This document shows, in pieces, positions 24,739 through 36,005 of a stretch of 44,219 bases of DNA (position 1 is its first letter; each line of letters starts with the position of its first letter). The notes beneath the pieces are model-generated. The model worked only from the letters and a program-made list of their open reading frames with translations. It was not told where the DNA came from and made no database searches. Where the stretch lies: sequence record NC_049813.1; one strand, given 5' to 3'. The stretch is from Escherichia phage vB_EcoS-12210I. Made by a program: the position numbers and the translations under genes.

Positions 24739-24816
24739 TGGCGCTCCGCACTGGATTCGAACCAGTAACCTACGACTTAGAAGGTCGTTGCTACTATCCT
24801 ATTGAGCTAGCAGAGC
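24739..24816 (-). tRNA. tRNA-Arg (anticodon UCU), CCA encoded
   Basis: Manual cloverleaf: acceptor GCTCTGC/GCGGAGC (one G-U), T arm ACTGG-TTCGAAT-CCAGT, anticodon stem ACGAC/GTCGT with loop CUUCUAA, 5-nt variable loop; D stem weak. Confidence 0.8.
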
Positions 24817-25090
24817 CTTGAATGAGTCCCGGTTACGGCTCCGGGGCTGCCTGATACAGCCGGTTAATCTGCCTATTTGCGCTAGGTCTTAATGCCGTAT
24901 ACGCTACCTAATGAGCAACGGACTTATTAGCTGCGCTCCGTGCGCCGTTCCATCTTGGATGGCTCGATTGCCTACGTGGTTAATGTTAGATAATTCCGGT
25001 CAGTGATGCAAGCTCTTTTTTACAACCTCCATCTAAACGATTAAAAAGCAACCCCAAGCAATCAGTCCCGCGATAAACCAGATAGTAAAT

Positions 25091-25330
25091 TCACTCATAA
25101 AGACTATTCCCATTCTCGTCATGACCCACACGACCCTTAAGATATCCACTAGTCCAAACAAAGCGATCTCGACTAATGATTGTAAAAACTGGCTCCCACA
25201 TCTTAGAAATCAACGTCGCAACATGCTTATCGTCCTTACGCTGCTTTGGCGATAGCTTGCTGTACTCTTCGTTCAACTTTGCGGCCTGACGTTTAACTGC
25301 GTTGAAGTGTGCTTCTGATAATCCGAACAT
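25091..25330 (-). CDS. Hypothetical protein, 79 aa
   Basis: ORF in the early minus-strand block. Confidence 0.45.
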   Translation of the reverse strand: MFGLSEAHFNAVKRQAAKLNEEYSKLSPKQRKDDKHVATLISKMWEPVFTIISRDRFVWTSGYLKGRVGHDENGNSLYE

Positions 25331-26839: not shown

Positions 26840-26885
26840 CTATAACAAAACCCGCCGTAGCTGGTTAGGCAAAAAGTGCTATTTA
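26840..26885 (-). promoter_or_regulatory. Promoter-like module copy g: element 26866-26885, TATAGT 26840-26845
   Basis: Element and hexamer with 20-bp spacer. Confidence 0.5.
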
Positions 26886-27139
26886 CCAACCTGAATTGAT
26901 TTAGACGATTCATGAATCATCTTCTGCCCGTAAAGCTCTTTAGCCCTCCGCAATGAATCAATCGAGTCATTAAGATCAGTAAGGTAATCTTTGTGACCAC
27001 GCAGACCAGTGCAAAGCATCTTCTTTATTGCATGCTGCGTTGCTGGGTCAGATACACCAAACGCATCAAGAACGCGATAAACATCCACTGTTGTTACCGT
27101 GCCATCAATGCCAATAATTTCACGATTGTACTTACTCAT
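26879..27139 (-). CDS. Hypothetical protein, 86 aa
   Basis: ORF in early block. Confidence 0.45.
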   Translation of the reverse strand: MSKYNREIIGIDGTVTTVDVYRVLDAFGVSDPATQHAIKKMLCTGLRGHKDYLTDLNDSIDSLRRAKELYGQKMIHESSKSIQVGK

Positions 27140-27289
27140 ATATCAATCCTCGTTATTGTGCCGCCATGCGTCTTAAGCATGAGCTTTGCGTACTTTTCGT
27201 CTACATAGTGCAGGAGCATATCAATACCCCTGCTGCTGAATTTATGTTCGTATATCGTCACTTAACTTACACTCGCGTGGTTGGTGTGG

Positions 27290-30025: not shown

Positions 30026-30265
30026 ATGAAAATTCGCTGCACTAACTGTATCACCAGCACGGACAAGAAGATTTTGACACCGTTCGTAAAGGGCTCTGTA
30101 TACAACGCTGAGCCACTAATCATTAACGGCAAGGCAATCCCGAACGAGTGGTTGATTAATGGCGCTGAGCGACCGCACAAGAACGATTCTGGCTGGATTG
30201 CCATTGCAGGCTGGAATGTTGTGATGTTTATCCCTGGAATTGCAACTTTTGACGAGGTGAAATGA
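30026..30265 (+). CDS. Hypothetical protein, 79 aa
   Basis: ORF with N-terminal CTNC motif. Confidence 0.45.
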   Translation: MKIRCTNCITSTDKKILTPFVKGSVYNAEPLIINGKAIPNEWLINGAERPHKNDSGWIAIAGWNVVMFIPGIATFDEVK

Positions 30266-31068: not shown

Positions 31069-32652
31069 ATGTTCGATTTCAACGAAGATAAACTATCTGT
31101 TGAACAGGTTATGGCAATTGCTGCCGCAGAAAACCTCCCGCCCCTGCGCGTCGCCATTAATGCTAATGGCTATCGCCAGTCTCAATCATTCTGGAAAGCA
31201 CCAGTCGAGATTGATGCAGCTAATGACAAGTATCCAGTAATCTCACTAGGTAATGACATTGATGTTGTTGGTAAGCTGTCAGCTAATATTGCCCGTTCTG
31301 TTCAGTTCCCTGAGTCGTCAGCTTACATGCACTTCCTGGGGTGTATTTCCGCTGCAATGCTGGGTCGATTTACTGTTGAGTATCACGGAACGCAGCAACC
31401 GACTTCGCTGTACGTCGTAACGAGTCAGCCACCATCGACGGGTAAATCAGCAATCAACTCACTTTCAATTGCTCCAATGATTGCTGAGACTGAGCGACTA
31501 AATAAAGTGAGAAAGCGTGAGCGCAAGAAAATTATGGCAAAACTATCTGAATTATCCAAAGAGATGAAGCAGGAAAAATCTCCGTCAGAGATGGCTTCAC
31601 TTTTTGAGGAGAAAGAGGAACTAGAGGAAAAACTCGAGAAACTATGTGATATCGTTTTCCCTGTGTCAGATACCACACCGGAAGGACTTGCGCGAATAAA
31701 CAACCGCCAGGGCAGCTTTGCTGTAATATCAGATGAAGCAACCAGCGTCAACTCACTGCTTGGTATGACCTATGGTGATGGTTCGAAGAAAACGAACAGC
31801 GAGCTTGTGCTGAAGGCCTGGGATGCTGGTAACGTGTCAATTGCGCGTGCTAACGCAGAAAACAATATGAGCTTTGTTGCTATGGGTTGCATCTCTGTAA
31901 TTGCACAGGATGAAACAATCAATGCGATCATGAACGCTGGCGCGCGTGGTATCGGTGTATCTGAACGTTTCCTGCTTGTACGTGAAAAGTCATTCCTGGG
32001 CGAGCGTGTGTTTGTTGATGAAAATGGTGAGTCAACTTACGAACCGATAGATGGTGAGCTTAAGGCTAACTACTTCCGTCTGGTTCATGAAATCATGAAT
32101 GAACAAGAAGTTAAGTTGACAGTTAGTAATTCAGCAATGAAATATCTCAACCGCGCGCGTCAGGAGATGGAACCGCACCTTGCTGACGGCGGGAAGTATT
32201 CACACACAATGTTGCGAGGCGCGTTGGGTAAGTTCGATAAGCAGGCAATCAGGATTGCGGCGGTTCTTCACACTGTGCGTAACTGGTTCAACCCAAATGG
32301 CGGTAGCCCTCAGAAGTCGAGAGAAATTGAGCTTGATACAATGCAGGAAGCTGTAATTATGTTCCAGGAACTTAGCAAGACTTATTTGTCATCCGCTAAC
32401 GCCGCGGGTCACGCTGGCGACAATGCAGAGATGAATAAGCTGATTGATATCCTGATTAAGCAAGGCAAAAACGGGAAAGGAGTAGTAGGTATTCGTTCGC
32501 TATATGAAGCGGCTCGCAAGGTTAAGCCGTTCGAGGCTCAAGCGGGAGTAATGACGAAGATTAAAGACCACTTGCTGCCAATGCTTGATGAGAAAAACTA
32601 CACGTGCCTGATTGGTGATAAAGTTTACATTAATCCACGACTATTGGGGTGA
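31069..32652 (+). CDS. P-loop NTPase, putative replication-associated protein, 527 aa
   Basis: Walker A-like QPPSTGKS and Walker B-like AVISDEA; termini shared with the 140-aa paralogue. Confidence 0.55.
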   Translation: MFDFNEDKLSVEQVMAIAAAENLPPLRVAINANGYRQSQSFWKAPVEIDAANDKYPVISLGNDIDVVGKLSANIARSVQFPESSAYMHFLGCISAAMLGRFTVEYHGTQQPTSLYVVTSQPPSTGKSAINSLSIAPMIAETERLNKVRKRERKKIMAKLSELSKEMKQEKSPSEMASLFEEKEELEEKLEKLCDIVFPVSDTTPEGLARINNRQGSFAVISDEATSVNSLLGMTYGDGSKKTNSELVLKAWDAGNVSIARANAENNMSFVAMGCISVIAQDETINAIMNAGARGIGVSERFLLVREKSFLGERVFVDENGESTYEPIDGELKANYFRLVHEIMNEQEVKLTVSNSAMKYLNRARQEMEPHLADGGKYSHTMLRGALGKFDKQAIRIAAVLHTVRNWFNPNGGSPQKSREIELDTMQEAVIMFQELSKTYLSSANAAGHAGDNAEMNKLIDILIKQGKNGKGVVGIRSLYEAARKVKPFEAQAGVMTKIKDHLLPMLDEKNYTCLIGDKVYINPRLLG

Positions 32653-32655
32653 TGA

Positions 32656-32991
32656 GTGTTTATTTTGGATTTGTACCGCTTCTGCGAGTCGTATTCATAC
32701 TTCACGCGCCAGCATTTGGCGCGATTCATCTACCAACATAAGGACTCTCAGAGATTCAGCAAAGCAGCAGGTTTGTCGCATAGGGAATTTTGCAGCGCTG
32801 CTTCAAAGGAGTTTTGCGCAAAGATGTTAACTGCTGGATACATTGATGGTAAGTGTGGTGAGTTTGTTAGCAAGGGTAGCCTGAAGAGGCCGTTTGATTT
32901 CAATTTCGATGCGCTTAGCGGGTATGAGAGCAAGTACATAAAAGAGATGATGAACATAGGAACAATGACTGACGAGGAGTTATTTTCTTAA
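32656..32991 (+). CDS. Hypothetical protein, 111 aa (GTG start)
   Basis: ORF begins at GTG right after the upstream stop; could start at a later ATG. Confidence 0.35.
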   Translation: MFILDLYRFCESYSYFTRQHLARFIYQHKDSQRFSKAAGLSHREFCSAASKEFCAKMLTAGYIDGKCGEFVSKGSLKRPFDFNFDALSGYESKYIKEMMNIGTMTDEELFS

Positions 32992-33051
32992 ATAGCACTT
33001 TTTGTTAAAAGCCCCTTGTGGGCTTTTGTTATTATTAATTCATCGAAACGA
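32990..33051 (+). promoter_or_regulatory. Promoter-like module copy l: element 32990-33009, TATTAT 33030-33035, start region CATCGAAACGA 33041-33051
   Basis: Full module geometry; a hairpin (33009-33025) sits inside the spacer. Confidence 0.55.
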
Positions 33052-33072
33052 TAGACAGGAAAGGAAAACAAA

Positions 33073-33150
33073 ATGGTTAAGTTCTTCGCTGGTATGCTGA
33101 CTGCTGTTGCAATCATGGATAACGTAGCTATTTATCTTGGCGTGTACTGA
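33073..33150 (+). CDS. Small hydrophobic peptide, 25 aa
   Basis: AGGAAAGGAAAA RBS; MVKFFAGMLTAVAIMDNVAIYLGVY. Confidence 0.35.
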   Translation: MVKFFAGMLTAVAIMDNVAIYLGVY

Positions 33151-33223: not shown

Positions 33224-33316
33224 ATGGATAATATTATGAAGATGAGCCAAGTTAATGGAAAGGCCCATCCATTAGCTATGCGGTACGATATCGACGTTGA
33301 AGTTAGAATTAAGTAA
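33224..33316 (+). CDS. Hypothetical small protein, 30 aa
   Basis: AAGAGGA RBS; followed by a terminator. Confidence 0.3.
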   Translation: MDNIMKMSQVNGKAHPLAMRYDIDVEVRIK

Positions 33317-33324
33317 CAGAAATA

Positions 33325-33346
33325 GCCTCCACTATGAGGCTTTTTT
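33325..33346. terminator. Terminator at the convergence of the plus early operon and the lysis cassette
   Basis: GCCTC-CACTAT-GAGGC followed by T6. Confidence 0.65.
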
Positions 33347-35919: not shown

Positions 35920-35930
35920 TTATAAGTTCC

Positions 35931-36005
35931 TTAATTCATTACGATAAAGTATAAGATAGTAAAGCTAAATAGTGGGACTAATGCTACTAGTATTAGGATC
36001 TTCAT
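35931..36005 (-). CDS. Small hydrophobic peptide, 24 aa
   Basis: ATGA overlap with upstream stop; MKILILVALVPLFSFTILYFIVMN. Confidence 0.3.
   Translation of the reverse strand: MKILILVALVPLFSFTILYFIVMN

Follow-up and report, generated by a model that had tools for sequence, protein, structure and literature searches.

Short hydrophobic reading frames of the T1-like Escherichia phage vB_EcoS-12210I: an almost certainly overlooked core micro-gene, a probable accessory gene and a module-borne orphan

Enterobacterial inner-membrane proteins of fewer than 50 residues, such as AcrZ, KdpF, MgtS, CydX and YohP, span the membrane once, are often encoded within operons, are often missed by annotation and bind larger membrane proteins. 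Type I toxin peptides (Ibs, ShoB, TisB and Hok/Ldr) are likewise hydrophobic, have 18–50 residues and insert in the inner membrane. Phage T1 has been under study since the 1940s. Here we analyse three very short open reading frames (ORFs) of Escherichia phage vB_EcoS-12210I (sequence record NC_049813.1), a member of the T1 family (Drexlerviridae; Braunvirinae; Veterinaerplatzvirus vv12210I) whose complete 44,219-bp genome is referred to as the window. An original prediction had grouped these frames, ORF1, ORF2 and ORF3 (Table 1), as one set of almost entirely hydrophobic peptides, and the coordinates and translations of all three are exact on re-reading of the window. The three ORFs are not a single phenomenon. 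ORF2 is almost certainly a real, overlooked core micro-gene of T1-like phages, ORF3 is probably a real gene restricted to Braunvirinae, and ORF1 is unproven as a gene.

ORF2 and ORF3 resemble proteins of the AcrZ kind in that each product would be essentially one hydrophobic helix, missed by annotation and encoded inside an operon. Unlike those proteins, they are shorter (21–25 residues), phage-encoded and without detectable relation to any family. An exact look-up of eight peptide sequences among ~15 billion predicted proteins returned no hit (0/8), no mini-ORF that was scanned matched Pfam or PHROGs, and a PDB profile search gave no match. The literature searched contained no mention of these ORFs and no ribosome profiling (Ribo-seq) or proteomic data on Drexlerviridae. 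The peptides represent new families of a well-known class, that of small membrane proteins that escape annotation. Gene callers discard frames as short as these, and all three are unannotated in MK907228 and the other inspected records of this phage. Some 40 clonal GenBank records (vB_EcoS-12210/12397 type) are 100% identical to the window and mutually circularly permuted; relatives that are 80–91% identical include OzMSK, BEK1-1, CEB_EC3a, Rtp and ACG-M12, with phage T1 standing far off within the family.

The evidence for ORF2 is comparative. The interval 5′ of the phosphoesterase gene was fetched from 14 lineages, T1 included, of which 13 fall into 12 named Drexlerviridae genera (Veterinaerplatz-, Rtp-, Guelph-, Loudon-, Tuna-, Badaguan-, Changchun-, Tls-, Warwick-, Vilnius- (two phages), Weber- and Nouzillyvirus) and the 14th is OzMSK, which has no genus assignment. 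In all 14 a hydrophobic frame of 23–25 codons runs right up to the ribosome-binding site of the phosphoesterase gene. Compared with the window, nucleotide identity goes down to 0.30–0.59, and in-frame stops number zero as against one to seven in the +1 frame. T occupies codon position 2 in 11–16 of the 22–24 codons, and mean identity by codon position is 0.63/0.79/0.50 in a 13-sequence alignment in which Pro11, Tyr19 and Met23 are near-invariant. Counted over the 14 lineages, Tyr19 is invariant, a proline at position 10 or 11 is found in 11 and Met23 in 12, and the Ser14 codon changes from AGC in the window to TCA in T1. The window peptide retrieves full-length copies from 89 phage records by tblastn and the T1 version adds a further 70, with matches in IMG/VR being copies of already known isolates only. 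As a control, 40 intergenic mini-ORF candidates were compared with Rtp, OzMSK, ACG-M12 and T1, and ORF2 alone is stop-free and full-length in T1. No annotation of ORF2 is present in the inspected records, the densely annotated OzMSK, KLB19 and Stevie included.

The Shine-Dalgarno sequence of the downstream phosphoesterase gene, TAAGGAA (35927–35933), begins with the TAA that is the stop codon of ORF2, and on the 5′ side the start codon shares the ATGA junction with the gp17-like gene. In IME347 and PHB17 this overlap is lost and a separate Shine-Dalgarno sequence for ORF2 is present instead. The gp16-like product matches Pfam Metallophos with E = 9e-4 and 20.1 bits, just under the gathering score of 21.5 bits, and its orthologues are annotated as phosphoesterase or DNA repair exonuclease. 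As a separate observation on annotation, in Warwickvirus tunus (locus L031, 203–292) and vB_EcoS-95 (locus L033, 103–192) the start of the phosphoesterase coding sequence (CDS) is extended over the ORF2 homologue (MWRLFVLPLPVIIAVTVMYHIVMR), and this is probably a miscalled start.

ORF3 has a narrower distribution. A tblastn search finds it in 72 records, all of Braunvirinae type, with a lowest identity of 62%. Identity by codon position is 0.88/0.96/0.80, all four glycine codons (GGA, GGC, GGG and GGT) are used at Gly11, and synonymous variants occur at Ala10, Thr5, Glu3 and Phe8. Two C-terminal forms are seen. Behind the form ending FLIV-stop come a highly conserved non-coding stretch and tRNA-Arg, whereas in the form ending FMVAA-stop the TGA shares bases with the ATG of another gene; in T145P1, BEK1-1 and AugustePiccard the ORF3 stop and the start codon that follows overlap (GCATGA). 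ACG-M12 lacks exactly ORF3, with the final codons of the upstream gene and the downstream block intact. In CEB_EC3a (locus L021, 250–350) and DTL (locus L022, 240–350) a second hydrophobic mini-ORF of 35 and 31 residues, respectively (MSKFIDCVIYTLCVALASASVMLIIAAIMMMLGYV, MSNLIGYVICILCAALILGCVALSLKIVGYV), separates the rtp15-like gene from the ORF3 homologue. Because it is inserted just upstream of that homologue with the same TATGAGTxA junction, MSE is taken to be the conserved start of ORF3. Two depositors had already called ORF3, as a 44-residue ‘putative membrane protein’ (KY398841) and as a 29-residue CDS (RobRod40); the KY398841 product reads the extra mini-ORF segment in a different frame.

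Two observations concern the DNA that follows ORF3. The ~50-nt block at 24983–25030 on the minus strand (AAAAAGAGCTTGCATCACTGA...TAACATTAACCACGTAG), which precedes tRNA-Arg(TCT), hardly varies among Rtp, OzMSK, ACG-M12 and CEB_EC3a. A sigma-70 promoter read by eye after ORF3 (TTGCAT-17-TAACAT) received no call in the scan and is not claimed.

Frame retention with coding-type substitutions in diverged relatives, as expected under purifying selection, is seen for ORF2 and ORF3 and is not seen for ORF1. Lack of conservation of the frames in related phages was to have refuted the original prediction: conservation is strong for ORF2 across the 14 lineages, holds for ORF3 inside Braunvirinae and is barely present for ORF1. 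The ATGA coupling ascribed to both minus-strand frames is correct for ORF2, which has a true ATGA overlap, and has to be amended for ORF3, which overlaps its upstream neighbour by 8 nt. Judged on sequence, we place the chance of being a real gene very high for ORF2, high for ORF3 and rather below even for ORF1.

Table 1. Features of the window around the three mini-ORFs.
Feature	Coordinates	Strand	Remarks
ORF1	33073-33150	plus	25 codons, MVKFFAGMLTAVAIMDNVAIYLGVY; lineage-restricted orphan mini-ORF
ORF2	35931-36005	minus	24 codons, MKILILVALVPLFSFTILYFIVMN; conserved Drexlerviridae micro-gene, predicted single-span membrane peptide
ORF3	25033-25098	minus	21 codons, MSEFTIWFIAGLIAWGCFLIV; Braunvirinae-wide accessory micro-gene, predicted membrane peptide
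T1 gp17-like gene, 83 aa	36002-36253	minus	TGA stop overlaps ORF2 ATG (ATGA); rtp60 annotated ‘similar to gp17 of phage T1’
T1 gp16-like calcineurin-type metallophosphoesterase, 376 aa	34789-35919	minus	directly 3′ of ORF2
Annotated holin, 71 aa	34183-34398		separate gene, ORF2 ~1.5 kb upstream
rtp15-like / T1 gp59-like gene, 79 aa	25091-25330	minus	stop 8 nt inside ORF3 (ATGAGTGA)
tRNA-Arg(TCT)	24742-24816	minus	downstream of ORF3, past strongly conserved ~50-nt block
Module upstream of ORF1	32990-33052	plus	previous gene’s stop codon, motif, hairpin, −10-like box, CATCGAAACGA
TAGCACTTTTTGTTAAA motif of ORF1 module	32993-33009	plus	one of 13 copies
Hairpin of ORF1 module	33006-33028	plus	
TG-TATTAT −10-like box of ORF1 module	33027-33035	plus	
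Shine-Dalgarno-like AGGAAAGGA	33057-33065	plus	7 nt before ORF1 ATG
Second module motif copy TAGCACAAATTGCTAAA	33151-33167	plus	abuts ORF1 stop; serves next mini-cassette
Annotated 30-aa ‘hypothetical protein’	33224-33316	plus	in-frame 87-nt deletion remnant of 60-aa gene intact in BEK6 and contig OERD01001707 (L027)
Bidirectional terminator hairpin	33324-33341	.	closes ORF1 cassette region and convergent lysis operon

Hydrophobicity in a single genome is a poor guide to such frames. Among the 205 ATG-initiated ORFs of 18–40 residues in the six frames of the window, ORF2 ranks 3rd, ORF3 5th and ORF1 9th by grand average of hydropathy (GRAVY), and the remaining members of the top ten overlap annotated genes or lie antisense to them. 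Of intergenic start–stop combinations in the window, ~10 of 150 exceed a GRAVY of 1.2. Because short hydrophobic ORFs are common in this genome, hydrophobicity within it does not go beyond chance, and what separates ORF2 and ORF3 from noise is the comparative data. Hydrophobicity of this kind is not evidence: the frame at the coordinates first reported, ORF1, is the weakest of the three. On the Hessa scale, applied as a position-independent sum over the best 19-residue window (kcal/mol), ORF2 scores -2.35 and its homologues -0.6 to +1.1, ORF3 +0.6 and its homologue -0.45, and ORF1 about +4.2. An insertion-competent hydrophobic segment of ~18–20 residues is found in ORF2 and ORF3 and not in ORF1. 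The description ‘almost entirely hydrophobic’ does not fit ORF1, which carries K3, D16 and N17, and the single transmembrane helix predicted for each product stays plausible for ORF2 and ORF3 and is doubtful for ORF1 with its central Asp-Asn pair. Among the annotated phage proteins, only the holin and the spanin have 19-residue windows as hydrophobic as those of ORF2 and ORF3.

The distribution of ORF1 is correspondingly restricted. By tblastn it is confined to the clonal isolates and phage BEK6 (92%), a metagenome scan yields one BEK6-like contig, OERD01001707, and no homologues are present in IMG/VR, GTDB genomes or E. coli complete genomes. The three versions differ at M15I, I20L and V24M and in the use of TGA or TAA as stop codon, and the ORF1 cassette is intact in both BEK6 and the contig. 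The 30-residue product annotated next to it matches the C-terminal half of phrog_8121 only. An RNA-level explanation of the ORF1 region was considered and rejected, the fold z-score being -1.16 and the Rfam match being tRNA only. Since the module in front of ORF1 supplies promoter, 5′ untranslated region (5′UTR), ribosome-binding site and ATG, ORF1 is probably transcribed and translated; neither selection on the peptide nor a membrane span is supported by the sequences compared.

A promoter-like module and a ribosome-binding site do precede ORF1, in line with the original prediction; the TTGCTA element of the module is 22–23 nt away from the −10 box, and a simple sigma-70 scan did not call the module sites, the ORF1 copy included. 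The module consists of TAGCACnnnTTGCTAAA (aaaTAGCACnnnTTGCTAAA), 22–23 nt, a −10-like TAT(A/T)(A/G)T box, a conserved CATCGAAACGA leader, a ribosome-binding site and ATG. It has 13 copies in the window (678-, 2544+, 3728+, 14942-, 27318-, 27824-, 29765+, 30411+, 32993+, 33151+, 37104-, 39600- and 40110+) against 0.01 predicted by shuffles. Every copy is intergenic and oriented toward the next gene; ORF1 shares its full module with 12 other transcription units, and the same arrangement of 5′UTR and ribosome-binding site also precedes real genes behind other copies. TAGCA-N5-TGCTA within the module is an inverted repeat centred near -42 that resembles an activator site or an operator more than a -35 box. 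T1, Rtp and ACG-M12 each have ~9 copies, and the module matches 394 phage records, including T4-like Klebsiella, Citrobacter and Cronobacter myophages.

Promoter-early stem-loop (PeSL) cassettes of T4-type phages, which mediate shuffling, are the closest described counterpart of this module (PMC2839356, PMC4122927). Like PeSL, the ORF1 module is repeated and intergenic, starts with the stop codon of the preceding gene and an A-rich lead-in within A/T-rich DNA, and combines a promoter-like −10 box with a stem-loop (PMC2839356, PMC4122927); orphan genes follow it in a hyperplastic region, where cassette gain or loss is bounded by two copies, and its sequence is common to T4-like Klebsiella and Citrobacter myophages. 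Unlike PeSL, the carrier here is a T1-like siphophage, the conserved TAGCA-N5-TGCTA element stands 22–23 nt from the -10 box rather than at -35 spacing, and only some copies, that of ORF1 among them, have a stem-loop. In BEK6 (locus L009, 415–915) and OERD01001707 (238–700 of its locus) an extra 100-residue ORF lies between two module copies, whereas the window has a single copy at 32990–33073, as expected from recombination between module copies in a PeSL-like shuffling. ORF1 is placed in a region of cassette turnover because of the presence and absence of this 100-residue cassette and the 87-nt deletion remnant next door.

An explanation that we consider reasonably likely is that ORF2 and ORF3 are membrane micro-genes and ORF1 a module cassette. 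The ORF2 peptide would be one transmembrane helix, made up of a Met-Lys/Arg N-terminus and ~20 hydrophobic residues with a mid-helix Pro or, often, Pro-Pro, a small side chain at position 14 and Tyr19-x-x-x-Met. Most ORF2 homologues have Lys2 or Arg2, a positive-inside hint of an N-in orientation; helix packing of a specific kind, as opposed to non-specific damage, is suggested by the fixed length, the mid-helix proline, the small residue 14 and Tyr19. Translation of ORF2 would proceed by coupling to the gp17-like gene, through the ATGA overlap or, in lineages that have lost it, through a Shine-Dalgarno sequence belonging to ORF2, and, because the ORF2 stop codon sits in the Shine-Dalgarno sequence of the phosphoesterase gene, terminating ribosomes would be handed to that gene, giving one ribosome run in the order gp17, ORF2, phosphoesterase. 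ORF3 would be overlap-coupled too and be gained or lost as a discrete unit. Both peptides most probably insert in the host inner membrane, where they would pair helix to helix with a membrane protein of either the host or the phage, and would be small modulators rather than bulk membrane poisons. ORF1 would represent the smallest cassette of a hyperplastic region built from repeated promoter modules. The mode of action proposed for ORF2 and ORF3 is drawn by analogy and remains tentative, and no sequence feature of the three ORFs points to any one of the activities suggested earlier, namely inhibition of division, transporters or lysis. A bolder and somewhat improbable version makes ORF2 an unrecognised Drexlerviridae core gene for a transmembrane peptide of 23–24 residues whose synthesis is chained to that of the gp16 enzyme. 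The peptide would cooperate with this enzyme, for instance by tethering or regulating it at the inner membrane, or else would act on a conserved inner-membrane protein of the host and be essential for take-over or exclusion.

The main rival holds that ORF2, and perhaps ORF3, is a pure translational relay, in which ribosomes coming off the upstream gene read the short frame, thereby opening the mRNA, and reach the ribosome-binding site of the next gene, and that the peptide is a functionless by-product. The ATGA start overlap and the stop codon inside the downstream Shine-Dalgarno sequence (TAAGGA or TAAGAGGA) are kept in most lineages, as a relay would have it, and ORF3 is likewise squeezed between overlapping neighbours in several phages. 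A relay, however, needs just an open frame, whereas ORF2 has a fixed length, an invariant Tyr19 with recurrent proline and Met23, a second codon position that is the most conserved and a third that is the least, and a hydrophobicity that is kept at 30–59% nucleotide identity. This constraint at the amino-acid level is left unexplained by a relay, and most neighbouring genes in these operons are joined directly, without a relay ORF. We regard a pure relay as unlikely. To much the same degree we doubt that the ORFs are no genes at all but frames left open by chance in T-rich spacer DNA, a proposal that concerns mainly ORF1. The frequency of short hydrophobic ORFs in the window, and the 9th place of ORF1 among 205, agree with it, as does the consideration that the ATG carried by a module would start translation of any sequence that happened to follow. 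Identity among the three versions of ORF1 is moreover ~96%, so that an intact frame carries little information. Set against this, the complete ORF1 expression cassette is kept in three phages that are ~10% different nearby, its stop codon is retained (TGA, TAA, TGA) and the replacements (M/I, I/L and V/M) are all conservative; for ORF2 and ORF3 chance is untenable.

Membrane-depolarising toxins or lysis-timing factors, acting in host shut-off or in the triggering of a pinholin and signal-anchor-release (SAR) endolysin, are a very unlikely role for the peptides. Their size and composition are like those of the hydrophobic E. coli toxins Ibs, ShoB and TisB (18–30 residues), the operon of ORF2 continues into the holin, SAR-endolysin and spanin genes, and ORF1 abuts the end of that cassette. 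Yet ORF2 lies 1.5 kb and three genes upstream of the holin gene and is linked to the phosphoesterase gene in every lineage, and conservation at the Pro, Gly/Ser and Tyr positions would fit specific packing better than bulk disruption. Unlike type I toxin genes, ORF2 and ORF3 have no antisense RNA gene or long structured 5′UTR and appear translationally coupled in operons: consensus scans, a weak test, gave no opposite-strand promoter or terminator signal around them, and Rfam returned tRNA only, with no antitoxin RNA. Nor do the peptides look like holins or antiholins, as they end within or just after the hydrophobic segment, with no holin-like charged C-terminal tail, and ORF3 lies ~9 kb from the holin gene.

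Several points nevertheless weigh against ORF2 and ORF3 as membrane micro-genes and ORF1 as a module cassette, in addition to the conserved junctions that a relay would also explain. Presence, conservation, coupling geometry and hydrophobicity of the mini-ORFs are shown by the sequences, from which we infer translation, membrane insertion, topology and mode of action, and the mode of action rests on analogy because no family, structure or named protein matches. The uncorrected ratio of non-synonymous to synonymous differences (pN/pS) of ORF2, 0.3–0.8, is noisy over 22 codons and was obtained with synonymous sites saturated. Because the Webervirus version of ORF2 has no proline and an identity of only 17%, its homology rests on position. 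ACG-M12 does without ORF3. For ORF1, the three near-identical sequences show three non-synonymous and no synonymous changes, the variable sites (4/78) show no clear difference from those of the flanking non-coding DNA (~10/106), the charged/polar pair Asp16-Asn17 breaks the hydrophobic run in mid-helix, and the neighbouring gene is a decayed one.

If ORF2 is what it appears to be, a core gene has been overlooked in every Drexlerviridae lineage examined, the long-studied T1 included, and it would about double the set of known integral inner-membrane proteins of the phage, which otherwise comprises the holin and the spanin. Its start codon is removable by a one-base change that spares the neighbouring gene, in a classic phage family.

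Outside the Drexlerviridae, Salmonella phage SE2 (Jerseyvirus; locus L029, 59–238) has a 59-residue two-helix protein of the T4 Imm superinfection-immunity family (PF14373, 56.9 bits) directly upstream of the orthologous phosphoesterase gene, in the slot where Drexlerviridae carry ORF2. Unlike this protein, ORF2 has one helix, not two, and hmmscan gave no match of any of the three peptides to PF14373 at E up to 10. Dhillonvirus EK99P-1 has a 26-residue hydrophobic ORF by its phosphoesterase gene. A small membrane protein linked to the phosphoesterase beyond Drexlerviridae is not general, as nothing of the kind is found in Dhillonvirus StarDew or Erwinia phage phiEa100. Within the same subfamily, the Rtp mini-ORFs rtp2 (19 residues) and rtp6 (30 residues, noted as Stp-like) are alike in being very short and in having overlapping stop/start junctions, and differ in lying at other loci; ORF2 and ORF3 are unannotated in Rtp.

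Further observations concern the annotation of the window in MK907228. It misses a 79-residue rtp73-like gene at 30026–30265 (plus strand) and probably also a 41-residue ORF at 27136–27261 (minus strand), which is 93% identical in Rtp, has an ATGA junction with the gene at 26879–27139 and lies behind a module copy. A 29-residue hydrophobic ORF joined to the helicase stop codon (32652–32741) was rejected as a further candidate, as it overlaps a conserved 111-residue gp10-like ORF in another frame. The gp10-like gene itself is annotated in MK907228 with 55 residues (32824–32991), and its 111-residue frame, from a GTG at 32656 (32656–32991, plus strand), matches the 111-residue CDSs of OzMSK and ACG-M12.

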